From Candidatus Giovannonibacteria bacterium (GTDB lineage Bacteria > Patescibacteriota > Minisyncoccia > JACPKW01 > UBA11713), in assembly GCA_023266875.1 (NCBI GenBank), contig JAHFOJ010000002.1, positions 3,163 to 67,162 on the forward strand: DNA of 64,000 nt. The letters are read 5' to 3'. Each line of letters begins with the position of its first letter. The stretch's first letter is position 1. The translations under genes and the position numbers were made by a program. This document shows positions 3,933-56,374 of the stretch, piece by piece. Under the pieces are notes generated by a model that saw only the letters and a list, made by a program, of their open reading frames with translations, did not search any database and was not told the DNA's origin.

Positions 3933-4048
3933 GCCCCGTTAGAAATCGCGGATGATTAAGTAATGATATATCATGGAAAAATTAGTTTTTATTAATAATA
4001 ATTTAAAGCGTATGGCGCATTTTGCGTCTCCGTCCTATTTCTAACGAG

Positions 4049-4432
4049 ATGAGAATTGCGGGCACAAACATACCGGATAATAAACGCCTCGAAGTGGCGT
4101 TAACATACATTTATGGCATTGGCCCATTTTCCGCATTAAAAGCTTTGGGCACTTCAAAAGTTTCTCCGGATAAGCGCGCCAGAGATATCACACCAGATGA
4201 GATCAACCGCTTGCGCGACGTACTCGAAAAACAATTTAAGATAGAGGGAGAACTTCGCCGAGAAATGATGATGAATATCAAGCGTTTGCGCGACATCGGG
4301 TCATATCGCGGCATGCGGCATTCAAGAGGCCTTCCTACGAGAGGACAGAGAACCAAAACCAATTCCCGCACGCGAAGAGGCAATGTTCGAAAAACTATGG
4401 GATCAGGTAAACGCAAGCTGGATAAAAAATAA
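4049..4432 (+). CDS. rpsM: 30S ribosomal protein S13
   Basis: [25 protein letters not shown]...[19 protein letters not shown]. The true ATG is at 4049; the track's TTG start at 4022 lies inside a conserved RNA element. Confidence 0.93.
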
Positions 4433-4553
4433 TCCCGTTAGAAATCGCGGACGAATAAAATAATAATTATGATATTTATGAAGCAATCGAAATTTATAAA
4501 AACTAATTTAGTACGTAAGGCGTATTTTGCGTCTGCGTTCTATTTCTAATGGG

Positions 4554-4979
4554 GTGGGCAAAAAACGCATAATACAAAAAGGTGGGACAGATGATATCCG
4601 CGCTCGGGCGCTGGCGAAACTCCCGAAGAAAAAACTTTCTTTCGGCATTTTAAACGTTCTTTCGACATACAATAATACTATTATTTCTCTCGCTGATGAA
4701 GCTGGAAACACGATCATATCTTCGTCTTCTGGGGCGATGGGCTTTTCTGGGGCGCGAAAGGGCACTCCATACGCCGCATCAAAAGTGGCAGAGGTTTTGG
4801 CGGAACGAGCGAAACTTATGGGGGTTAAAGATATTGGAATTAAAGTAAAGGGGATAGGCGCCGGCAGGGAATCTGCCATTCGTTCTTTCGCGGCTCATGG
4901 CTTTAACATTCAATTTATTAGAGACATCACGCCGATCCCGCATAACGGACCTAAACCGGAGAAACCGAGGAGAGTCTAA
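4554..4979 (+). CDS. rpsK: 30S ribosomal protein S11 (probable GTG start)
   Basis: The ...NNTIISLADEAGNTIISSSSGAMGFSGARKGTPYAA... S11 signature is present. The in-frame GTG at 4554 sits immediately 3' of the conserved leader stem. Confidence 0.88.
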   Translation: MGKKRIIQKGGTDDIRARALAKLPKKKLSFGILNVLSTYNNTIISLADEAGNTIISSSSGAMGFSGARKGTPYAASKVAEVLAERAKLMGVKDIGIKVKGIGAGRESAIRSFAAHGFNIQFIRDITPIPHNGPKPEKPRRV

Positions 4980-4980
4980 T

Positions 4981-5595
4981 ATGGCGCGAATTCCATGTAA
5001 AATCTGCAGGCGTCTTGGTGTCTCAATTTGTGGACGCGAAAAATGCGCGATGAGGCGCAAACCCTACCCGCCCGGAGAACATGGGAGAGGATCACGCCAT
5101 TCACGCCGTTCTTCTTCAGAATTCGGCGCCCAGCTTAGGGAAAAACAAAAGTTGAAATTTCTTTATGGTCTTCGCGAAACACAATTTAGGAATTATGTCG
5201 TGGAAGCCTCGCAAAGAACAGGGAGCACATCAGAAATTTTATACCAGTTATTGGAATCCAGATTAGATAACGTTGTCTATCGGCTTGGATTTGCTTTTTC
5301 GAGAGCGCGCGCGAGGCAAATTGTGACTCACGGCCATATCTGGGTAAACGGCAGAAGCGTAAACATTCCGTCTTTCAGAACACGCAAAGGAGACATAATT
5401 TCCATTAGGCCCCAAAGCGCCGGCAAAGGGCTATTTAAAGATTTAGATATCCAATTAAAAAAATATAACGCCCCAGCGTGGATTGAATTAGACCGCGAAA
5501 AACGCGAAGGCAAAGTTCTTGGAGCCTCGGCGATAGAGCTCGAAGGCGCACTCGAATTAAACGTGAACGCGATCGTCGAATTCTATTCGCGATAA
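4981..5595 (+). CDS. rpsD: 30S ribosomal protein S4 (zinc-finger type)
   Basis: MARIPCKICRRLGVSICGREKC... and the S4 domain LDNVVYRLGFAFSRARARQIVTHGHIWVNGRSV. The ATG at 4981 is 1 nt after the rpsK stop. Confidence 0.93.
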   Translation: MARIPCKICRRLGVSICGREKCAMRRKPYPPGEHGRGSRHSRRSSSEFGAQLREKQKLKFLYGLRETQFRNYVVEASQRTGSTSEILYQLLESRLDNVVYRLGFAFSRARARQIVTHGHIWVNGRSVNIPSFRTRKGDIISIRPQSAGKGLFKDLDIQLKKYNAPAWIELDREKREGKVLGASAIELEGALELNVNAIVEFYSR

Positions 5596-15250: not shown

Positions 15251-15811
15251 ATGTTAAAGAAGTCTTTTTTTAAAAGCCCAACGCTAGATGTTGCGCGTCG
15301 TCTCATTGGCAAAACCCTTATACGTAAATTTAAGGGGAAACTAAATAAAGGAATAATAACAGAGACCGAAGCTTATGTTGGTCCGCAGGACCTGGCCTCT
15401 CATGCCTCACGTGGGCGAACAGCCAGAACCGCAGCGATGTTCGGGGAAGCGGGGCGCATTTATGTTTATCTTATTTACGGCATGCATTTTTGCCTAAATA
15501 TCGTAACGGAGAAAAAAGAATTTCCTGCCGCCGTGTTAATCCGCGCAATCCGCGCTGGGAATCTAGACATAAGAGGACCGGGCAGAATTACAAAATATTT
15601 TCATATCGACAAAAGCCTTAATGCCAAAAAACTTGGGCACGAAAGTGGTTTATGGATAGCCGCCCCTTTGGGACAAGCCTCGCCCAGAAAACTCAGGGCG
15701 CAAAAGCTAAAAATTAAGAGCGGGGCGCGAATCGGGGTCGAATACGCCGGAGCGTGGGCAAGTAAACCCTGGAGGTTTTATGTTAAACTAACCGCATGGC
15801 GCGGCTTGTAA
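15251..15811 (+). CDS. mpg: DNA-3-methyladenine glycosylase (Mpg/AAG family)
   Basis: [10 protein letters not shown]...[50 protein letters not shown] is diagnostic of the MPG family. Confidence 0.85.
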
Positions 15812-16176
15812 AATATTTTGATAAACTTGAAGATAAAGTCCGCCGGGCACTCTCACGGCGCCCTATTGTCTATACCCTAATCGGCGGCATAGGCATTGTG
15901 CTTTTTTGGCGTGGCGTATGGATGACAGCGGATCTTTTCCCATTCTTAAGCGGCCCTGTTTCAATAGCCTTGAGCGTGGCAATACTTATGATAACCGGGC
16001 TTTTCGTTTCTTTTTTTATAGGAGATGAGATCATCATTGAAGGTTTGAAGCAGGAGAAAAAAATCACGGAGAAAACCGAGTCTGAAATAAAAACTGAAGA
16101 AACAACGCTGCGCCAAATTAAAAAAGACCTGGACGCGATAAAAGTAAAATTGGAACAAATGTCGAAGTCAATATGA
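15796..16176 (+). CDS. Hypothetical small membrane protein with a C-terminal coiled-coil
   Basis: 126-aa ORF with two predicted TM helices and a K/E-rich tail. Confidence 0.45.
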
Positions 16177-17207
16177 ATGAATTTTTATTTGTTGTTCTTG
16201 GTATAATTGCCGGCGCCGTAAGCGTTTATTTCGTTCTGCAGAAACACGCCCCGAAAGAATCGGAGGGGATGCTTATGCTTCAAAACCAGATGAATGAGCT
16301 TTCGCGGAAAATGGATCAGAATGTCGGCCAATCAACCGAAGTCTTGCAGCGCCAGCATTCTGAATCCATCAAAGCGGCGCGCGAACTTGCCGAACGCCTG
16401 ACTAAACTCGACGAAACGAACAGACAAGTTGTCGGCTTCGCCGACCAGCTTCAAAATCTTCAGGACATTTTGCAGAACCCAAAACAGCGCGGGGTTTTAG
16501 GCGAATATTATCTTGAAACAGTTTTAAAAAATGTTTTGCCACCTGGTTCGTATGAAGTTCAATATCCGTTTAAAGACGGGACAATTGTGGATGCCATAAT
16601 CCATGTTAAAGATAAAATAATTCCGATTGATTCCAAATTTTCGCTTGAAAATTATAATAGAATTATTGGCGAGCGCGATCCTGCCGAGCGCGAACGATAC
16701 GAAAGACTTTTTCGCCAAGACCTAAAAAATAGGATTGATGAAACCGCAAAATACGTGAAGCCATCCGAAAGCACGCTTGAATTCGCGTTTATGTTCATCC
16801 CATCGGAGGCCATTTATTACGACCTTTTAATCAACCAGGTCGGCGCAGTCAAGGTCGCAACCCAAGACTTGATTGAATACGCTTTTAAGCAAAAGCACGT
16901 CATTATAGTCTCTCCCACGTCATTTTTAGCCTATCTGCAGACGGTTCTTCAAGGTCTTAAAGCCCTCCAAATCGAGGAATCAGCCAAGGAGATGAAGAAG
17001 TTCGTGGAAGCGTTGATGCGCCATTTAATCACCTACGAAGATTATTTCCAAAAACTTGGCAAGAATCTAGGCACGACGGTCGGAATGTATGACAAAGCAT
17101 ATAGCGAATTCCAAAAAATAGACAAAGATATCTATCGCATAACAGGCGAGGGGATTGAATCAGAGCCGGTTTTGATAGCAAAACCCCACGCGGATGAGAT
17201 AGAATAG
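16173..17207 (+). CDS. rmuC: DNA recombination protein RmuC
   Basis: An N-terminal TM segment, a coiled-coil and a RmuC core (GVLGEYYLETVLKNVLPPGSYEVQYPFKDGTIVDAIIHVKDKIIPIDSKF). Confidence 0.8.
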   Translation: MNEFLFVVLGIIAGAVSVYFVLQKHAPKESEGMLMLQNQMNELSRKMDQNVGQSTEVLQRQHSESIKAARELAERLTKLDETNRQVVGFADQLQNLQDILQNPKQRGVLGEYYLETVLKNVLPPGSYEVQYPFKDGTIVDAIIHVKDKIIPIDSKFSLENYNRIIGERDPAERERYERLFRQDLKNRIDETAKYVKPSESTLEFAFMFIPSEAIYYDLLINQVGAVKVATQDLIEYAFKQKHVIIVSPTSFLAYLQTVLQGLKALQIEESAKEMKKFVEALMRHLITYEDYFQKLGKNLGTTVGMYDKAYSEFQKIDKDIYRITGEGIESEPVLIAKPHADEIE

Positions 17208-17250
17208 ACCTTGCTTTAAATTTATAATTTTGATACTATGGTTTTTATCT

Positions 17251-17565
17251 ATGCCACAATTCGCAGTAATCAAAACAGGCGGGAAACAATATCTTGTTAG
17301 TCCCGGGCTTAAATTAAAAATCGAAAAACTTCCTTCCACAGAAGTCAAAATTTTATTTGACGTCTTAGCTCTAGGCGATGAAAGTGTTTTGAACGCAGGA
17401 AAGCCCATCGTGTCCGGCGCTAAAGTTGAAGCAGAGGTTTTACGCGAAGGCAGAGCGGATAAAGTTATTATCCAACATTATCATTCCAAAACTCGTTACA
17501 GAAAGAAAAAAGGCCACCGCCAGCCCTTCACTGAAATTTTGATAAAAGAGATAGTTGTAAAATAG
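17251..17565 (+). CDS. rplU: 50S ribosomal protein L21
   Basis: MPQFAVIKTGGKQYLVSPGLKLKIEKL...HYHSKTRYRKKKGHRQPFTEI. It is not adjacent to rpmA. Confidence 0.9.
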   Translation: MPQFAVIKTGGKQYLVSPGLKLKIEKLPSTEVKILFDVLALGDESVLNAGKPIVSGAKVEAEVLREGRADKVIIQHYHSKTRYRKKKGHRQPFTEILIKEIVVK

Positions 17566-17616
17566 ATTTCTAGTGCTTGAATCGGGAGCGCCTGCTACCC
17601 CCTATTTTTTTGCCAC

Positions 17617-17640
17617 TATTTACATATTCGTACGAGTTAC
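17617..17640. repeat. Copy A of the same motif, CTATTTACATATTCGTACGAGTTACCC, in the rplU/recR convergent spacer
   Basis: It carries the 20-nt stretch shared by copies A, B and D, at a locus 22 kb away from them. Confidence 0.5.
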
Positions 17641-17659
17641 CCTATTATTGTGGAAATTT

Positions 17660-18262
17660 CTACTTTCTATTCTCAAACGCGTGTTTCAGAGTATCTCTGT
17701 CTGAATACTCAAGTTCCGTTCCTGTCGAAAGGCCCCGGCCAAGATTCGAAATTTTAAACTTCCGGCTTTTAATAATCGGCTCAAGAATTTTTTCAATATA
17801 GCGTTTTGTCATATCACCTTCGGTTGTGGCTGATAGCGCTAAAACTATCTCGCCTAATTTTTTATTTGCCTCAACGCGTTTATAGAGTTCCTTCAAACGC
17901 AATTTTTCCTGTATCTCCGGACGCAAGGGGGAAAGAAGCCCGCCTAAAACATGATAGCGTCCGTCGAAAATCTGGTTACGCTCCATATTTTCAAGATCAG
18001 CGTCTTTTTCGATAACTAACAGCTTCGAATCATCGCGGTTGGGATTTGAGCAGACAACGCATTCATTGCTTTTTCCTTCAAAAATTCTAAAGCATGTTGA
18101 GCATCGAGAAACTTCTTTATGAAATCTCACAAGCAATTTTGAAATTTCTTCAAGCGACTTGGGTTCGGATCCTGCCAAATGATATACAAATCTACGAGCC
18201 TGCCTCGGTCCAATCCCGGGAAAGCTTTGAAAAAAATTAATTAAATCGGCGATTATGCTCAT
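17660..18262 (-). CDS. recR: Recombination protein RecR
   Basis: An HhH motif (FPGIGPRQARRF), a C4 zinc finger (CSTCFRIFEGKSNECVVC) and a Toprim domain. Confidence 0.92.
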   Translation of the reverse strand: MSIIADLINFFQSFPGIGPRQARRFVYHLAGSEPKSLEEISKLLVRFHKEVSRCSTCFRIFEGKSNECVVCSNPNRDDSKLLVIEKDADLENMERNQIFDGRYHVLGGLLSPLRPEIQEKLRLKELYKRVEANKKLGEIVLALSATTEGDMTKRYIEKILEPIIKSRKFKISNLGRGLSTGTELEYSDRDTLKHAFENRK

Positions 18263-36958: not shown

Positions 36959-37656
36959 TAATTCGTTTTTTCGAGCTCAATATTTCCAAACCGTTCCTCT
37001 TGGCTGACCAATAGCGCCCCTTCTTTCACAAGCTCGAGAAGCGCTAAAAATCCAATGATCACTTCCGTTTTGTTTTTCGCGCCTACCACATCCTTAAACG
37101 AAGCCTTTAAGCGCTCAGACAATCGCCTAATCAATTCCACCATTTTTTCTTCAATTGAGATTACTTTCTCAAGCGTTTTGGATGGCAATTCTTTTAACTT
37201 TGGGAATCCAGCGACTAAATTTTTCAGAGACAAATTAAGCGACCCAATCGAAACTCCTATTGGCTCAATAAACCCAAAATCCATGCCTTTGAAAGCTTCT
37301 CTTGAAAACATTTGGTTTAGCCCCCAAGCTTCCTTAATATTAAGCCCAAGTTCGCGCAGGCGCTGAAGCAGCTTCAATCTTGTTTCTAAATCATAAATCC
37401 CTTCCGTTTCTTCCTTTGTCAATTCAAGCGTTGGTAAAAGCGATCGGGATTTTATAAGCATCAAAGTGGAAGCAACCACAAGAAAATCAGCGGCTTCAGC
37501 GCGCGGGAAATCAGTCAACTTTCTCATGTGCTTGATATACTCATCCGTAACGGCCGACAAAGAAACAACTGATATCGAAAGCTTTTGCACCTCAATTAAA
37601 TCGAGGAGCAAATCAAGCGGCCCTTCAAATCCGCTAAGTTTTACGTTGAATTTCAT
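36958..37656 (-). CDS. scpA: Segregation and condensation protein A
   Basis: FEGPLDLLLDLIEVQKLSISVVSLSAVTDEY... is a kleisin ScpA pattern. Confidence 0.88.
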   Translation of the reverse strand: MKFNVKLSGFEGPLDLLLDLIEVQKLSISVVSLSAVTDEYIKHMRKLTDFPRAEAADFLVVASTLMLIKSRSLLPTLELTKEETEGIYDLETRLKLLQRLRELGLNIKEAWGLNQMFSREAFKGMDFGFIEPIGVSIGSLNLSLKNLVAGFPKLKELPSKTLEKVISIEEKMVELIRRLSERLKASFKDVVGAKNKTEVIIGFLALLELVKEGALLVSQEERFGNIELEKTN

Positions 37657-39071
37657 TTTTTGTCTTTTTTAATTTCGAGCCCCAATTCTTTCAGCTGCGC
37701 TTCTGATACTTCCGAAGGCGCCCCCATCATCAGATCTCGCCCTTCGCCTGTCTTTGGAAACGCGATCACTTCGCGGATATTCGGCTCATTCATTAAAATC
37801 ATAATGAGCCGGTCTATGCCAGGCGCGATCCCGCCGTGCGGAGGCACGCCAAAGCGAAATGCCTCAAACATATGTCCAAACTGGCGCTTGATATCTTCTT
37901 TTTTGTTGCCAAGTGCTTCAAAAACTGCTTTCAGAAGTTCCGGATCATGAACGCGGATCGACCCGCCTCCAACTTCAAAACCGTTTAGGACAAAATCATA
38001 TTGATCAGCAAGCATCTCCCCGGGGCGTTCCTTAAATTCCTTCCAAAATTCATCTACATTTTCCACTTGCGGTTTCGTGAATGGATGATGTGTCGCATCC
38101 CATCTCTTCTCCATTTCTCTCCATTCAAACGCCGGAAAATCCTCGACGAAAAGAAACGCAAGCTCATCGGGATTATTTTTGTCATTTCGAATATCAGGCT
38201 TGTCAGAACCATATTTTTTCATTGCTTCCTTATAAGTAATCCGCGGAATTTTGCCATCGGGATCGAGCGTAAGTTTTTTTTCTGGATACAGAGACCTGGC
38301 GAGAGCCAGGAACAAACCTTCAGTCAAGCGAAGCACATCTTCCTTTGTTACAAAACTCATTTCCAAATCCAGCTGGGTGAATTCGGGCTGGCGATCGCCC
38401 CGCGTGTCTTCGTCCCTAAAGCAGCGCGCAATCTGAAAATATTTTTCAAAGCCCGCGACCATTAATAGCTGCTTATATTGTTGCGGGGATTGCGGCAAGG
38501 CGTAAAAAGAACCCTGTTCAAGACGCGACGGCACAAGATAGTCTCGCGCGCCTTCCGGAGTTGACTTTGATAGAATTGGAGTTTCTATTTCTATAAAATC
38601 GCGCTCGGTCAAAAAATCTCGAATGAATTTTATTATCCTTGCGCGCTCGCGGAGATTCTTTGAAAGCCGTGGTCTGCGTAAATCTAGATATCGGTATTTC
38701 ATCCGAACATCCTCACCAATGTCATAGCCGGCGCTGGAAAGATCGAATGGCGGAGTATTTGCCTCGGCCAATATTCTTATCTCCGCGACCTTCATCTCAA
38801 TTTTACCCGTCGGGCTTTCAGAATTTATCATATCTGCCGGCCGCTCCTTGATCTCACCTGTAACAGAAACCACCCATTCCGGACGCAATTTCTGCGCTAA
38901 AACGCGCAGTTCTTCCGGTTTCGGAGCAACCACTAACTGGATTTTCCCCAAACTGTCGCGCAGGTCAAAAAAAATAAGCTTGCCGTGATCTCGTCTGACA
39001 TCAATCCATCCGCAAAGCTCTACTTTTTCGCCCAAATGCTCCGCGCTATCTGTGGTATATATCCTTGACAT
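37653..39071 (-). CDS. aspS: Aspartyl-tRNA synthetase (short type lacking the GAD insertion)
   Basis: An N-terminal OB domain and class II motifs (FYALPQSPQQYKQLLMV; FRDEDTRGDRQPEFTQLD; GGGSIRVHDPE...GIAPGIDRL). It is 472 aa. Confidence 0.92.
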   Translation of the reverse strand: MSRIYTTDSAEHLGEKVELCGWIDVRRDHGKLIFFDLRDSLGKIQLVVAPKPEELRVLAQKLRPEWVVSVTGEIKERPADMINSESPTGKIEMKVAEIRILAEANTPPFDLSSAGYDIGEDVRMKYRYLDLRRPRLSKNLRERARIIKFIRDFLTERDFIEIETPILSKSTPEGARDYLVPSRLEQGSFYALPQSPQQYKQLLMVAGFEKYFQIARCFRDEDTRGDRQPEFTQLDLEMSFVTKEDVLRLTEGLFLALARSLYPEKKLTLDPDGKIPRITYKEAMKKYGSDKPDIRNDKNNPDELAFLFVEDFPAFEWREMEKRWDATHHPFTKPQVENVDEFWKEFKERPGEMLADQYDFVLNGFEVGGGSIRVHDPELLKAVFEALGNKKEDIKRQFGHMFEAFRFGVPPHGGIAPGIDRLIMILMNEPNIREVIAFPKTGEGRDLMMGAPSEVSEAQLKELGLEIKKDKK

Positions 39072-39212
39072 AAAAAAATAATAGCATAATTAATTAATTT
39101 TTTACATATGCTAACTTTCTGACAATCATCTTCTTTAACTCATAATTGACTATCTTGCGTATTTCCTGCTAAACCTCAACTATCTTTAAATCATCTTAAT
39201 GCAAAATATTAT

Positions 39213-39239
39213 CTATTTACATATTCGTACGAATACATC
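39213..39239. promoter_or_regulatory. Copy B of the repeated motif CTATTTACATATTCGTACGAATAC (palindromic core ATTCGTACGAAT)
   Basis: A 14-bp perfect palindrome TATTCGTACGAATA lies in the aspS upstream region, downstream of arsR. Confidence 0.5.
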
Positions 39240-39279
39240 ACCAACATTAGCAACTAACAATTACACACAAGCAGTCATA

Positions 39280-39561
39280 TTATAGAATAAACGGAAATAT
39301 TTTCGTCAATACTCTCGGCACACTATCGGCAATCCTATATTCAATAATATTCATCCTTCTTTGATTTTCTAGAACGCCCGCGTTCAGAAGTGTTTTTAAA
39401 TGGTGTGAGGTAGACCGAAACGATAAATCAATCTCATCAGCAATCTCGCCGACAGACAGCTCTTTTTTAGATTTTAATGTTCTAATAATTGCAAGCCGTT
39501 TGTCATTAGCAAGCGCCTTTAAAAGGTTTTCTAGGTTTTTCATAATTGCATTATAGTCCAT
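39280..39561 (-). CDS. ArsR/SmtB-family transcriptional regulator
   Basis: 93 aa with a wHTH (LKALANDKRLAIIRTLKSKKELSVGEIADEIDLSFRSTSHHLKTLLNAGVLE). Confidence 0.85.
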   Translation of the reverse strand: MDYNAIMKNLENLLKALANDKRLAIIRTLKSKKELSVGEIADEIDLSFRSTSHHLKTLLNAGVLENQRRMNIIEYRIADSVPRVLTKIFPFIL

Positions 39562-39570
39562 GAAAGGTTA

Positions 39571-39590
39571 CTTACAAATTCGTACGAATA
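39571..39590. promoter_or_regulatory. Copy C, the palindrome AATTCGTACGAATA, immediately upstream of the arsR start
   Basis: Seen directly. It lies 10-30 nt upstream of the ArsR ATG on the minus strand, between a TATAAG -10-like box and the start codon. Confidence 0.5.
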
Positions 39591-39663
39591 CTTCTTATAA
39601 AATACTTCTACATAAGTTCGGCATCAGATAATTCTAAATCTGTCTGTCGCGCTGCCTCTCAAT

Positions 39664-39690
39664 CTATTTACATATTCGTACGAATTACCC
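39664..39690. promoter_or_regulatory. Copy D of the motif, CTATTTACATATTCGTACGAATTACCC
   Basis: The 20-nt stretch CTATTTACATATTCGTACGA is shared across copies A, B and D; A and D share the flanking TTACCC. It sits between the HK stop and arsR. Confidence 0.5.
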
Positions 39691-39719
39691 GTTTAATTAG
39701 AAGCTGGCTTTATACTAAT

Positions 39720-41354
39720 CTATGCCCCATATGGAGCTGGATTCGGAAGATTTCGGCGTAGCGGCAGTCGGATCAAGAACGTGCTGCCTCTGCCTACGCC
39801 TGGTGATTCTGCCCAAATTTCTCCTCCGTGATCAGATACTATTCGTTTCGCGAGATAAAGCCCAAGCCCTATTCCTTCCGCGTTCGCTTTCGCGCCCGTA
39901 TTTCCTCTGGTAAATCGGCTGAATATTCTTTCAAGATCTTCTTTCACCATGCCAACACCCGAATCGAGGAAAGTAATCAATAAAACCTCCCCCCCGCCGC
40001 TGCTTTTCGTTTCAATTTTTATTTTTACAAAACCTCGCGGGGTGTATTTGAGGTCATTGTCTATAATATTTGTAATAACTTGGCGGAACTTTTCCTTATC
40101 CACCGAAACATCTGGCAAAGTAGAGTCCGGCTTTTCGAAAATAAGTTCAATTTGCTTATCACGTGCTGGTCCTTGAAATTCGTCAACAACATTAGCGATC
40201 ATAGGAGCGATCTGGGTTGATTCAAAATTGTAATTCATGCGCCCCGATTCAATCCGTGACAAATTAAGAAAATCATTCACTAAATTAATTAAGCGCTCAT
40301 TTGAAAGATAAACTTTCGAGAGAGTTTCTCTGACTTTAGAAGATATTTCCCCAAAACTTCCCTCCTGAATCATAGAAATATATCCTTTAATAATTGAAAG
40401 CGGAGTCCGAAGCTGATGAGTGGCAAGCGAAAGAAATTCCGATTTCAGCTGATCAAGTTTCTTTAGTTCCACATTGGCTTTCTCCAAATCCTCCGCCAAC
40501 TTCTGAATCTGTTCTCTGGAGCGAACTTCTTGTAAAACACTGCGTATTAAAAGTAACCCAAAGAGAATAACCAATACCAGAAGGCCACCGTCAAGAAATG
40601 CATCCTGTAAAGTTCTAGCAATAACTGTTCTTACTAAAAGAAATACACAAATTGAAAAAACCAGTAGTTCGGTAGCAATAACACGCACATTAAATAAACG
40701 ATGCTTTATGACAGCATATCCAAGGAAAAAGGGAAAAAAAGAAACTAAAAAATTACCAAATGGCGGGATAGGAACTCCATACCATAAAAAAAAGTTCGTA
40801 GCCCCACCTCCGAATCCAAAAATCGCCCCAAGGACAACATAAGAGATCTGCCCTTTCTTTGATTTATCGGATAGCTTATAAGATTTTGCCAATAAAATGA
40901 AAGCATATAAAACCAGCACAAAATAGAAAAAGATTAGATAAAAAGTATAAAGCGGTCCAGGACTCGGCCAAAATGGGAAAAATAATTTTGGCCCTATGCT
41001 CTTTATAAATAAATTAGAGGTAGAAAAAAGGGTAAGTAAAATCGAAATAATATAAATTAAATATAAAAAACTGCGCTTATTTTTAGACTGACCCAACAGC
41101 TCTAAAACCCAGTGAAAGTAAAAAACTGGGATAAAAATTGATCCTATAGAGAAAAATCTTATCCAGAAAAGCGCTGGTTCAACACTTGCACTCGAAAGCC
41201 ACTGCCAATATCCAAAACTCCAGACTGCTATAGCAGCCGTCATAAGAAAAAACAATTGGTTAATTCTATCCCGGAAGCTTTTATAAATAAGAAGGAACCC
41301 AAAACTTAAAGCAAATATTCCGTTTACTAATCCAGATAAAGCAAAAATATTCAT
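39720..41354 (-). CDS. Sensor histidine kinase with an N-terminal multi-TM sensor domain
   Basis: About 7 predicted TM helices, a coiled-coil, HisKA (LSLATHQLRTPLSII) and HATPase_c (...DSGVGM...GLGLYLAKRIV...). Confidence 0.85.
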   Translation of the reverse strand: MNIFALSGLVNGIFALSFGFLLIYKSFRDRINQLFFLMTAAIAVWSFGYWQWLSSASVEPALFWIRFFSIGSIFIPVFYFHWVLELLGQSKNKRSFLYLIYIISILLTLFSTSNLFIKSIGPKLFFPFWPSPGPLYTFYLIFFYFVLVLYAFILLAKSYKLSDKSKKGQISYVVLGAIFGFGGGATNFFLWYGVPIPPFGNFLVSFFPFFLGYAVIKHRLFNVRVIATELLVFSICVFLLVRTVIARTLQDAFLDGGLLVLVILFGLLLIRSVLQEVRSREQIQKLAEDLEKANVELKKLDQLKSEFLSLATHQLRTPLSIIKGYISMIQEGSFGEISSKVRETLSKVYLSNERLINLVNDFLNLSRIESGRMNYNFESTQIAPMIANVVDEFQGPARDKQIELIFEKPDSTLPDVSVDKEKFRQVITNIIDNDLKYTPRGFVKIKIETKSSGGGEVLLITFLDSGVGMVKEDLERIFSRFTRGNTGAKANAEGIGLGLYLAKRIVSDHGGEIWAESPGVGRGSTFLIRLPLRRNLPNPAPYGA

Positions 41355-42232: not shown

Positions 42233-42287
42233 AAATCAAGGATAGATCATTAAGAAGATAAAACCTGACGCGAACTATACCCAAATT

Positions 42288-42325
42288 ATCCCACAAAAAG
42301 CCCTTGGGAATAAGGGATAAAAAAA
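42288..42325. repeat. Direct repeat copy 1, TATCCCACAAAAAGCCCTTGGGAATAAGGGATAAAAA
   Basis: About 38 nt with 34/38 identity to copy 2, 360 nt away. It contains a CCCTT/AAGGG hairpin plus A/T runs. Confidence 0.55.
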
Positions 42326-42352: not shown

Positions 42353-42604
42353 CTATACCTCAACACCGAGTTTGTCTTTGAGAACTCTTTTTATATGCTC
42401 ATGCTCTATCTTCAGTGTTGTATATTCTAAAACCCTATCTAGCAGCTGGGGGAATTCTTCTCTATCCGGTTTTTTGTTAATTTCTTCGGTTAGTCTCTCA
42501 AATCTCTTATCAATATTAATAAGATCGGGATTTAATTCTTTCCTGATTTGTTTAGCAAATGTCTTCAATTCATCCTTTAGATCCTGCTTTGTGATTTGTT
42601 TCAC
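42353..42604 (-). CDS. Hypothetical small charged protein
   Basis: 83-aa ORF that is K/E-rich and predicted helical. It is flanked by the two direct-repeat copies. Confidence 0.4.
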   Translation of the reverse strand: MKQITKQDLKDELKTFAKQIRKELNPDLINIDKRFERLTEEINKKPDREEFPQLLDRVLEYTTLKIEHEHIKRVLKDKLGVEV

Positions 42605-42647
42605 TTTTTTATTCTATTATTTAAATAAAATTATTGCAAATTTATAA

Positions 42648-42685
42648 TATCCCACAAAAAGCCCGTGGAAATAAGGAATAAAAAT
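42648..42685. repeat. Direct repeat copy 2, TATCCCACAAAAAGCCCGTGGAAATAAGGAATAAAAA
   Basis: See copy 1. Confidence 0.55.
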
Positions 42686-54376: not shown

Positions 54377-54454
54377 TGGCGCCCCCGCCGGGATTTGAAC
54401 CCGGGTTACATGGATGAGAACCATGCGTCCTGGACCAGGCTAGACGACAGGGGC
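54377..54454 (-). tRNA. tRNA-Glu (anticodon CTC)
   Basis: Manual cloverleaf: GCCCCTG acceptor, anticodon stem CATGG/CCATG with loop TTCTCAT, T-arm CCGGG-TTCAAAT-CCCGG and 3' GCCA. The 5' half resembles canonical tRNA-Glu. Confidence 0.8.
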
Positions 54455-54552
54455 ATTGTTTTTAAAATAATATCTTTTTCTGATTAAAAATTCAATAAAA
54501 TTATACCTCATAGACCTTTTCGTGCGAAAAGGTCTATGCTGTTTTGATCTAA

Positions 54553-55851
54553 TTAAATCTTCTTCCATTCCTCTTCCTGCCTCACCAAAAGTCCAGATTT
54601 TCGCTCCGGCTCTGCCATAATTTGCTCCACAACTTTTTCCATCCGCATCGATTGCGAGCCTTTCACTAAAATTAGATCGCCGGACTCAAGTTTTCTTTCA
54701 AGATCAATCCCCGCCTCTGCTGAATCGTTAAAATAAAAAATATTCTCCTTTATAAATCCTGAAGCAATCGCGCCCTCCGCGAAAAATTTAGAGCGCACTC
54801 CTACAATAAAAAGAATATTAGTATATTTTGATAGTTTCTCCCCTATCTCGCGGTGCGCTGGAATAGTGAAGCGACCGAGTTCGGTCATATCTCCCAAAAC
54901 AGCGATGCGGCGTTTCGCTTTAAGCGCCCGCAGAACCTCAAGCGACGCTAAAAGTGCCTTAGGCGAAGAATTATATGTGTCGTCCAAAACGTAAGAATCT
55001 TTTAGTCCGCGGATCAAGTTTAAGCGTCCGGGCGGAGATTCGAAACGTGACAATGCGCTTACCGCGTCCTCCAACTTTATTTTCATTGCAAGGCCGCATC
55101 CAAGCGCCGCAAGCGCGGCATATATTTGATGTTTGCCGAACGTATTTAAAATTTTTACAGGATATTCTTCTTCAAGATGCTTAACTTTAAATTCCATACC
55201 CTCAGGAACAGACATCCTCCCCTCTTTTCTTGTGAATATTTCATATTTAGATCCAGAAAAATCGGCTTTTTTTGAAAAACCGAAAGTTAAAATTTTCGCG
55301 CTTATTTTCTCGCGTATTTTCATAATCTCTTCGTCATCTGAATTCAACAGGACTGTATCATCCGGCCCTAAATCTTTAACCAATTCAAATTTTTCACGGA
55401 ACACTTCCTCAGGCCCAGAAAAAAATTCCACATGCACAGGAGTCGGCTGAAGCGCTGTTATGACCGCAATGTCTGGTTTAAGATATGTGCGAATTTTTTG
55501 GATATCGCCGGGGCGATCAGCTCCAATTTCAAGCACAAGCAACTTGGGATATTTCTCGCGAAATAAAATAAGCTTAAGCCCCTTAGCGATCGCATCGAGC
55601 CATTTGGAAACTGAATGCCATCCGGTTTCCGCTCCAATAATCGTAAGCGGAACGCCAAGTTCGCTATTGTAGCTTTTCTGGCTTTTGCGAATTTCTATAG
55701 ATTGGCCAAGCACCAAAGCGATAGCGTCTTTGGCAGAAGTTTTTCCAACCGATCCAGTCACCGCAACAATTTTTGGCTTATATTTCTTGAGAATTAGCCT
55801 CGATTCCCAAGTTAAAATAGCTACGACAATTTTCTTAAGGAAATCCCGCAT
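54553..55851 (-). CDS. murF: UDP-N-acetylmuramoyl-tripeptide--D-alanyl-D-alanine ligase MurF
   Basis: Mur ligase P-loop VTGSVGKTSAKD and the central and C-terminal Mur ligase domains. Confidence 0.88.
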   Translation of the reverse strand: MRDFLKKIVVAILTWESRLILKKYKPKIVAVTGSVGKTSAKDAIALVLGQSIEIRKSQKSYNSELGVPLTIIGAETGWHSVSKWLDAIAKGLKLILFREKYPKLLVLEIGADRPGDIQKIRTYLKPDIAVITALQPTPVHVEFFSGPEEVFREKFELVKDLGPDDTVLLNSDDEEIMKIREKISAKILTFGFSKKADFSGSKYEIFTRKEGRMSVPEGMEFKVKHLEEEYPVKILNTFGKHQIYAALAALGCGLAMKIKLEDAVSALSRFESPPGRLNLIRGLKDSYVLDDTYNSSPKALLASLEVLRALKAKRRIAVLGDMTELGRFTIPAHREIGEKLSKYTNILFIVGVRSKFFAEGAIASGFIKENIFYFNDSAEAGIDLERKLESGDLILVKGSQSMRMEKVVEQIMAEPERKSGLLVRQEEEWKKI

Positions 55852-55867
55852 ATCCCAATTATACCAA

Positions 55868-56374
55868 TTATACCAAGAATGGCTCTCTTTTGCGCTTGCG
55901 CGCGAAAAACCAAATATACAAAATAACAAGTAATATTACGTCGGGAATTAAAATTTCGGGCGAAGCCCAAGGGTGCCCATTTATTTCAAAATGCGAGAAA
56001 GGCCATAAAAATGGAGTTGGAAAAAATTTATAGGAGTGGGTTGGTATGTCCATTAAGATGTGAAGTCCCCAAGCGGAAAATTCCCAAAGCGGCCGCCTTA
56101 AAATAATCCACAAAAGACCGAACAGAAGCACAAAGACGAATAGACTGTGGCTTATATTGTAAACTTGATAGACAAACTGCGGAATAGAATCCGGCACCGG
56201 CGGCTCCGCTGAAAAATTTGGTCTCGGAACAATCCTCAAAAACATTAAAACAAAAAATGGCCCGAAGGCGATGAGGTCTGGCAGGATTCCGAACACAAAA
56301 GAAAGCCAGAAACTTTTTTTTGATTTCCGTCCGAACGCAACGCCTCCCCATAGGCCGTGCGAGATTATATCCAT
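55868..56374 (-). CDS. Membrane-bound metal-dependent hydrolase (YdjM/DUF457-like)
   Basis: 168-aa polytopic membrane protein with conserved His residues (MDIISHGLWG..., ...DIPTHSY...). Confidence 0.5.
   Translation of the reverse strand: MDIISHGLWGGVAFGRKSKKSFWLSFVFGILPDLIAFGPFFVLMFLRIVPRPNFSAEPPVPDSIPQFVYQVYNISHSLFVFVLLFGLLWIILRRPLWEFSAWGLHILMDIPTHSYKFFPTPFLWPFSHFEINGHPWASPEILIPDVILLVILYIWFFARKRKREPFLV

Follow-up and report, generated by a model that had tools for sequence, protein, structure and literature searches.

Palindromic sites bracketing an arsR-like gene in a Patescibacteria genome are probably operators of the encoded ArsR/SmtB-family protein

Introduction

What is the function of a short palindrome that recurs upstream and downstream of a small arsR-like gene and is found once more, with a single mismatch, in an intergenic spacer 22 kb away? 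To our knowledge, almost nothing is known about gene regulation in the CPR/Patescibacteria, bacteria that possess very few transcription factors and do not grow in isolation. Autoregulated repressors of the ArsR/SmtB family such as SmtB, CzrA and CadC typically use 12-2-12 inverted-repeat operators. Here the palindromes of one 64-kb window (the whole stretch of DNA that was analysed, 64,000 nucleotides) are compared with those found beside homologous genes of other genomes. With a probability of roughly 0.8, they represent operator sites of the 87-aa ArsR/SmtB-family protein encoded at 39280–39543, because the same arrangement of gene and sites recurs in many related uncultured Patescibacteria/CPR.

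Results

Copies of the palindrome and their genomic context

The palindrome ATTCGTACGAAT is present in three exact copies, designated A (39223–39234), B (39578–39589) and C (39674–39685). A fourth copy, D (17626–17637), reads ATTCGTACGAGT and deviates from it by one mismatch; all four copies are oriented along the plus strand. Allowing up to two mismatches, the bare 12-mer is found 4 times compared to 4.4 expected occurrences and thus shows no excess over chance. The longer 20-mer CTATTTACATATTCGTACGA occurs exactly at 17616, 39213 and 39664 and with three mismatches at 39568, giving 4 matches where 0.01 are expected, a number reached in none of 100 shuffled sequences. Identity among copies A, C and D amounts to 20–27 nt: C and D have 27 nt in common with one mismatch, and C and A form perfect 22-bp direct repeats flanking arsR. 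A scan of 596 Gb of genome contigs with the 16-mer TTACAWATTCGTACGA returned 118 single, taxonomically scattered matches, which is about chance level.

Copies A, B and C are situated in a cluster of minus-strand genes comprising aspS (37653–39071), the arsR-like gene (39280–39561, called as a 93-aa winged helix-turn-helix ORF with HTH_20/HTH_5 domains), a gene for a 7TM histidine kinase (39720–41354) and a methyltransferase gene. Copy D lies in the 94-nt spacer between the convergent genes rplU (17230–17565), the sole plus-strand gene among the neighbours, and recR (17660–18262, minus strand). Exact matches and annotation thus bear out the preliminary description, which had listed palindromes at 39223, 39578 and 39674, an extended 20-nt identity, a near-identical fourth copy in the rplU/recR convergent spacer, and this gene context. 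Its statement that the copies lie upstream of the ArsR gene and of aspS needs one refinement: copy A is located 3' of the arsR stop codon and ahead of the aspS start, but not at an aspS promoter. In an Rfam scan of the window three tRNAs were the only hits, with neither a riboswitch nor a T-box ahead of aspS. Assignment of the motif to the partner of the histidine kinase was rejected, as the kinase adjoins the gene in no other locus.

Two further direct-repeat pairs were observed in the window. One pair (42287–42323 and 42648–42684; 37 nt, 92% identity) surrounds a small ORF (42372–42647), and each of its copies contains an inverted repeat TATCCC...GGGATA. The members of the other pair (3988–4051 and 4493–4556; 64 nt, 80% identity) are 505 nt apart.

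The motif accompanies one ArsR subfamily

A search for the motif in relatives, as proposed in the preliminary description, showed that it brackets the homologous gene in about 20 independent loci. The first protein search identified three relatives, on whose contigs ATTCG-NN-CGAAT flanks the gene on either side. From a metagenome scan 29 loci were obtained, and a profile search returned 2821 proteins at E ≤ 1e-8, a threshold which also admits more distant ArsR homologues. The best 120 of these 2821 matches comprise 86–119 aa, mostly 86–92, and the few named proteins among the matches listed belong to Patescibacteria (Liptonbacteria, Ryanbacteria, Colwellbacteria).

Within 160 nt upstream of the ATG of a homologous ArsR-like gene encoding 86–92 aa, TTCG-NN-CGAA is present in 20 of 21 loci outside the window (21/22 including the window), and the remaining locus, L132, displays a one-mismatch variant upstream of the gene. 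A 3' site, 5–100 nt past the arsR stop codon, accompanies 18 of the 21 loci (19/22 including the window). In the seven long loci taken from the profile search (L154, L156 and L158–L162; L155 and L157 duplicate L154 and L156) the gene is again accompanied by a site, and by sites on both sides in six of them, the 3' site being absent in L159. Among the loci of the metagenome scan, those encoding a protein with 44% or more identity to the window protein all carry the motif beside the gene, with at most one mismatch from ATTCGNNCGAAT. No motif was detected near the gene of any of the 16 more distant ArsR homologues of the metagenome scan. Expressed as density, ATTCG..CGAAT occurs 21.5 times per 100 kb in the family loci, compared to 0.9 times in unrelated loci; the 101 kb surrounding distant ArsR genes contain no occurrence.

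Presence of the motif coincides with the recognition helix of the protein. This helix reads LSFRSTSHHL in the window protein and LSFRSTS[HRK]HL in the motif-bearing loci, with the close variants LSLRSTSRHL in L158 and LSFKATSKHL in L156; the 16 motif-less homologues have different recognition helices. The proposal that the palindromes are operators of the ArsR protein, put forward earlier as the most economical reading, is supported by the lack of the motif around ArsR homologues with another helix, as far as sequence comparison can indicate.

The genes next to arsR, including the histidine-kinase gene, differ widely from locus to locus. Copies of the motif are more alike within one genome than between genomes, and in L156 (10755–10790; same in L157) a third near-identical copy is located inside the coding region of dinB (IMS family). 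This copy apparently falls into an extra stretch of about 25–30 codons following the SVDEAYADLT motif.

Extent and sequence of the site

A position weight matrix (PWM) was trained exclusively on the sites of other genomes after alignment of the arms. Positions −1 to −5 of the arm, (A)TTCG, are invariant or almost invariant, conservation extends to positions −8 (C), −12 (T) and −13 (A), and the information content reaches position −13. As delimited by this conservation, the putative binding site spans about 28 bp: the core ATTCG-NN-CGAAT is invariant and further positions are conserved on its outside, an architecture resembling the 12-2-12 operators of ArsR/SmtB proteins. Among the arms, ATCGGCTAATTCG is the most frequent, and many of the 3' sites in other genomes are perfect palindromes of 26–38 bp. 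The conserved flank of the window copies, TATTTACATATTCG, has its counterpart in the arm TAT(A/T)(G/T)ACAAATTCG found in close relatives, and the second arm of C and D, GGGTAA(T/C)TCG, resembles CGGCTAATTCG. Since the 20–27-nt identity among the window copies covers positions that are conserved between genomes, as would be expected of an operator of about 28 bp, it can be explained without invoking a mobile repeat.

The highest PWM score in the window, 21.2, belongs to a perfect 30-bp palindrome, CATAGACCTTTTCGTGCGAAAAGGTCTATG (54509–54538), designated candidate site E. It is followed by site C (39665–39694) with 20.7, site D (17617–17646) with 18.0, site B (39569–39598) with 12.3 and site A (39214–39243) with 12.2; the next score is 10.7. 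The maxima of 20 shuffled sequences ranged from 6 to 18, and site C exceeds all of them.

The ArsR-like protein

The window protein matches the Pfam domains PF12840 (HTH_20; 6.5e-11) and PF01022 (HTH_5; 2.2e-9), both above their cutoffs, and scores 67 bits with NCBIfam NF033788 at a cutoff of 55. A profile search of the PDB retrieved 41 ArsR-family chains, with HlyU, CadC, YgaV and BigR as best matches (E 2e-14 to 3e-9). The scores with the NCBIfam models of the SdpR autorepressor subfamily (NF033789; 55.4 bits, cutoff 100) and of BigR (40 bits, cutoff 155) stay below the respective cutoffs. Judged by its sequence, the protein is a member of a large ArsR/SmtB subfamily found in Patescibacteria (CPR).

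Inspection of the sequence and of the alignments revealed no cysteine in the window protein. The position of the ELCVCDL motif reads ELSVGEIA, and the C-terminal helix lacks the His/Asp/Glu ligand pattern. Because cysteines as well as ligands at the α3N and α5 positions are missing, the label of a metalloregulator appears unsupported for this protein.

The 93-aa gene call probably includes six codons too many. All homologues align with a start at the second ATG (39543), and the first ATG of the ORF (39561) falls between the predicted −35 and −10 hexamers; for both reasons 39543 is the probable true start, which results in a protein of 87 aa encoded at 39280–39543 on the minus strand.

Promoter architecture and site B

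A consensus scan of the window arsR gene predicts the promoter TTGTAA-16-TATAAT-6-ATG with 10 of 12 matches (39550–39577, minus strand). The −35 hexamer TTGTAA at 39577–39572 is separated by a 16-nt spacer from the −10 hexamer TATAAT at 39555–39550, which in turn lies 6 nt ahead of ATG 39543. The order is the same in the window and eight relatives: the palindrome is followed by TTGTAA or TTGTCT, 16 nt, TATAAT (TAAAAT or TATACT in two cases), 6 nt and the ATG. Since the −10 hexamer is positioned six bases ahead of the start codon, the arsR mRNA is predicted to be leaderless. Considering window genes preceded by a spacer of at least 40 nt, a −10-like hexamer is found 4–9 nt before the start in 12 of 27, compared to a background of 17%, and a Shine-Dalgarno-like sequence in 2 of the same 27. 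Starts with a TATAAT-like hexamer nearby include 13178, 25839, 52714, 39071 and 39543, which suggests that leaderless mRNAs may be widespread in the source genome.

Site B, the putative autoregulatory operator, is centred at about −40.5 from the ATG, and the promoter-proximal arm of the extended site contains the −35 hexamer of arsR. A centre at −40.5 or −41.5 is also found in L120 and L125–L130. The layout in L136, L158 and similar loci is a different one, the palindrome being followed by an extended −10 sequence, TGGTAGAAT, 6 nt and the ATG, which places the centre near −20.5. Binding of the ArsR protein to site B would exclude RNA polymerase and thereby repress its own gene. Autorepression of arsR is likely to apply to all lineages, since the −20.5 site of L136 and L158 overlaps the extended −10, where a bound protein would have to block RNA polymerase.

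Sites outside the promoter

Site A, the putative conserved 3' operator, is centred 51.5 nt past the arsR stop codon, and the distance from it to the start of aspS is about 150 nt. For aspS the likely promoter, TATTAT-6-ATG with the hexamer at 39078–39083, is located more than 90 bp beyond site A, and the case for aspS as a target of site A appears weak. Among the relatives the gene following arsR varies (mpg, nth, dinB, serS, a ligA fragment, DUF5661, TfoX_N or a methyltransferase). Moreover, the window arsR is located away from its usual neighbour mpg (15252–15811), yet it has retained the 3' site, and a PWM scan of the window detected no site at mpg. Variation of the downstream gene and retention of the site by the window arsR together indicate that the 3' site is probably part of the regulator module and not of aspS. 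The earlier proposal of autoregulatory and target operators is hence upheld in part: putative operators exist at arsR, aspS is a weak candidate for a target, and the position of site A is kept whatever gene follows.

The 5' and 3' sites are spaced by 305–455 bp. Site C, a putative auxiliary upstream operator, follows the stop codon of the histidine-kinase gene by about 40 nt and precedes site B by 96 bp; L154 has a comparable extra site upstream, 74 bp from the promoter site. Sites A and C could act as auxiliary operators, which may either raise occupancy through cooperativity or DNA looping, or prevent transcription from reading through into aspS. In L125–L129, the start codon of mpg, about 22 nt past the arsR stop, is embedded in the 3' operator (CGAATATGTCC, for example at 5133–5144 of L125); the same position reads ATG-TAA in the window copies A, C and D.

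Site D, an orphan copy in the convergent rplU/recR spacer, lies about 28 nt after the recR stop codon, and its mismatch affects a T that is invariant elsewhere. In the relative L127, the rplU/recR region contains no D-like site. The location of site D, with no minus-strand promoter to control, counts against the operator reading; the copy could be either a recent duplicate devoid of function or a roadblock between the convergent genes. Site E is positioned between the murF stop codon (54553) and the gene for tRNA-Glu(CTC) (54377–54454, minus strand) and agrees with the operator in the outer positions (ATAGAC) as well as in the inner ones (TTCG). An equivalent palindrome precedes tRNA-Glu(CTC) in L120 (551–580), and none was found upstream of tRNA-Glu in L125, L127 and L129. 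Site D, and probably also the palindrome at tRNA-Glu, would represent remote sites of the same protein, at which a transcriptional roadblock at gene ends is conceivable. Alternatively, site E could act as an RNA hairpin with a predicted folding energy of −21 kcal/mol.

Outside the promoter, each site of the window (A, C, D and E) is located 28–51 nt after the stop codon of a minus-strand gene, which with four cases is no more than a hint. Plus-strand promoters starting from TTTACA in the arm were also considered and rejected. Site D offers TTTACA-18-TATTAT (10/12), but site A lacks a −10 hexamer and site C would need a 19-nt spacer; this promoter-likeness was treated as a by-product of the arm sequence.

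The relatives L125 and L127 share the gene order murF–tRNA-Glu–x–arsR–mpg–...–rmuC–rplU–...–recR, which in the window is split into three places (15252–17660, 54377–55929). Compared to these relatives, the window mpg has lost arsR and the site. About 60–85 nt after tRNA-Glu(CTC), a second sequence resembling a tRNA-Glu 3' end, aaatcccgatggggcc, is present in L125 (4271–4350) and L127 (622–710), which could be the remnant of a duplication or reflect an unusual tRNA gene structure.

Discussion

Interpretation of the palindromes as operators of the ArsR-like protein has to be weighed against other explanations. The same protein and the same sites could serve to activate the arsR promoter, as a centre near −41 is the classical position of a class II activator. 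Such a role would fit the centre of site B at −40.5 from the predicted start, the weak −35 hexamer TTGTAA with its 16-nt spacer, and HlyU, the closest solved homologue, which has been named a transcriptional activator. It is nevertheless unlikely, considering that the orthologous sites of L136 and L158, lying at −20.5 over the extended −10, are incompatible with activation, that the −35 hexamer is covered by the extended arm of the site, and that ArsR/SmtB proteins are mostly repressors. A role at the RNA level, as a 3'-end hairpin for termination, processing or stability, is suggested by the sites following the arsR, histidine-kinase, recR and murF stop codons, and by the long perfect palindromes at the 3' sites of other genomes, for which hairpins of −21 to −34 kcal/mol are predicted (−21 for site E). 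This explanation is very unlikely to hold for the motif as a whole: the hairpins of A, C and D are no better than those of shuffled sequences, no U-tract follows the sites and no terminator-like site was called at A, B, C or D, the upstream copies precede the predicted transcription start and would therefore remain untranscribed, and it is the sequence, with its invariant ATTCG, that is conserved and not pairing with covariation. Based on the folding comparison and the negative terminator calls, a terminator or hairpin role was rejected for the window copies. The 3' palindromes of the other loci are likewise not followed by a U-tract as in intrinsic terminators; being perfect over 26–38 bp and predicted to form strong hairpins, they may still have a role in RNA.

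The preliminary description had offered as alternative a small dispersed repeat, which would spread through intergenic regions like a REP/BIME or MITE element without any link to ArsR. In line with this, copies A, C and D share 20–27 nt, one of them lies 22 kb away in a convergent spacer, another copy has entered the dinB coding region of L156, and copies resemble each other more within a genome than between genomes. All the same, we regard a dispersed repeat as less probable still, and the earlier suggestion as unsupported, because the motif is tied to one ArsR subfamily in about 20 loci at fixed positions relative to the gene and is absent around other ArsR genes, and because the identical stretch coincides with the positions conserved between genomes. 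In addition, the 64 kb contain only five copies, of which three are located at the gene, neither terminal repeats nor target duplications were seen, and A, C and D do not form stable stem-loops (−3 to −9 kcal/mol; z −0.5 to +0.8 relative to shuffles). Least probable of all is that the sites mark the boundaries of a recombining cassette, with site–arsR–site as the mobile unit, C and A as its direct repeats and D as an unoccupied target. The perfect 22-bp repeats around arsR, the displacement of arsR from its place beside mpg with the 3' site kept, and the widely differing neighbours would agree with a cassette; no recombinase was found nearby, neither excision nor empty sites are evident in the relatives, the upstream site is integral to the promoter in all lineages, and the bracketing is accounted for by protein binding.

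As operators of the ArsR-like protein, the sites can be compared with known systems. With SmtB, CzrA and CadC, the present system shares the winged-helix HTH_5/HTH_20 domain in a protein of about 90–120 aa and a long imperfect inverted repeat with a 2-bp centre that overlaps the promoter of the regulator itself, either at the −35 or at the extended −10. In contrast to these metal sensors, the window protein lacks cysteines and the α3N (CXC) and α5 (D/H/E) ligands, no metal-resistance gene is located near the window arsR, a second putative operator is regularly present 3' of the regulator gene in the present subfamily, and the promoter is predicted to be leaderless. HlyU, BigR and YgaV, small proteins as well and the closest solved structures, are non-metal ArsR members, which form dimers without classical metal sites and sense via a cysteine pair; this pair is missing in the window protein, and the operator sequence is unrelated. 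Several operators per gene, one of them downstream, are also known from LacI (O1/O2/O3), GalR (OE/OI) and the roadblocks of CcpA and CodY. Here, however, the protein family is unrelated, looping or a roadblock is inferred only, and strength and symmetry are usually greatest in the site at the 3' position. REP/BIME elements resemble the motif as short palindromes in intergenic spacers, one of them convergent, but the motif differs by its low copy number, its attachment to one regulator gene across genomes and the lack of hairpin stability of the window copies. While the ArsR/SmtB type of autorepressor is already known, neither the present motif nor this subfamily is described in the searchable literature.

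The neighbourhood of the homologues points to a tentative link with DNA repair. The homologue is accompanied by mpg in L125–L129, by ogt, mpg, nth and mazG in L136 and L158, by dinB with thymidine kinase and thyA upstream in L156, by alkD and a NUDIX gene in L159, by NUDIX genes in L120, L125, L126 and L132, by a ligA fragment in L130, and by exonuclease, HIT and NUDIX genes in L162; in L124, mazG adjoins the second site. No neighbour with a function in repair or nucleotide hydrolysis was found in L133, L154, L160 and L161, and in the window recR is the only such gene near a site. This association was noticed after the fact, in the loci that were inspected. That the ArsR-like protein and its sites form a Patescibacteria-wide module controlling the repair of damaged bases and the sanitation of the nucleotide pool (mpg, nth, ogt, alkD, dinB, mazG, NUDIX, ligA) is a speculative proposal, more doubtful than probable.

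A LexA-controlled SOS network of Patescibacteria has been published (Sanchez-Osuna, Barbe & Erill 2017, cited in PMC8565304). Regulation of DNA repair in the same bacterial group, and the occurrence of dinB and uvr genes near some homologues, would be common to both systems; regulator family and motif differ, and the repair link of the ArsR type comes from neighbourhood alone. In two Patescibacteria contigs, genes for fusion proteins that combine a LexA DNA-binding domain with Peptidase_S24 and N6/N4 DNA-methyltransferase domains are located at a distance of a few kb from the arsR-like gene (L154 3147–4670, L160 2131–3693).

The mechanism proposed here is textbook autoregulation and as such of modest general interest; less ordinary are only the rule of gene-bracketing operators and the possible link to repair. 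As by-products, the analysis yields a probable correction of the arsR start codon, evidence for leaderless promoters in the source genome and a hint at a connection to base repair. If the latter proved true, the ArsR-like protein would constitute a second DNA-damage circuit beside LexA, in which the bracketing operators would gate read-through into the downstream genes by looping or as a roadblock. Conserved in Liptonbacteria, Ryanbacteria, Colwellbacteria and others, the putative regulator–operator pair represents a testable entry point into gene regulation of the Patescibacteria.
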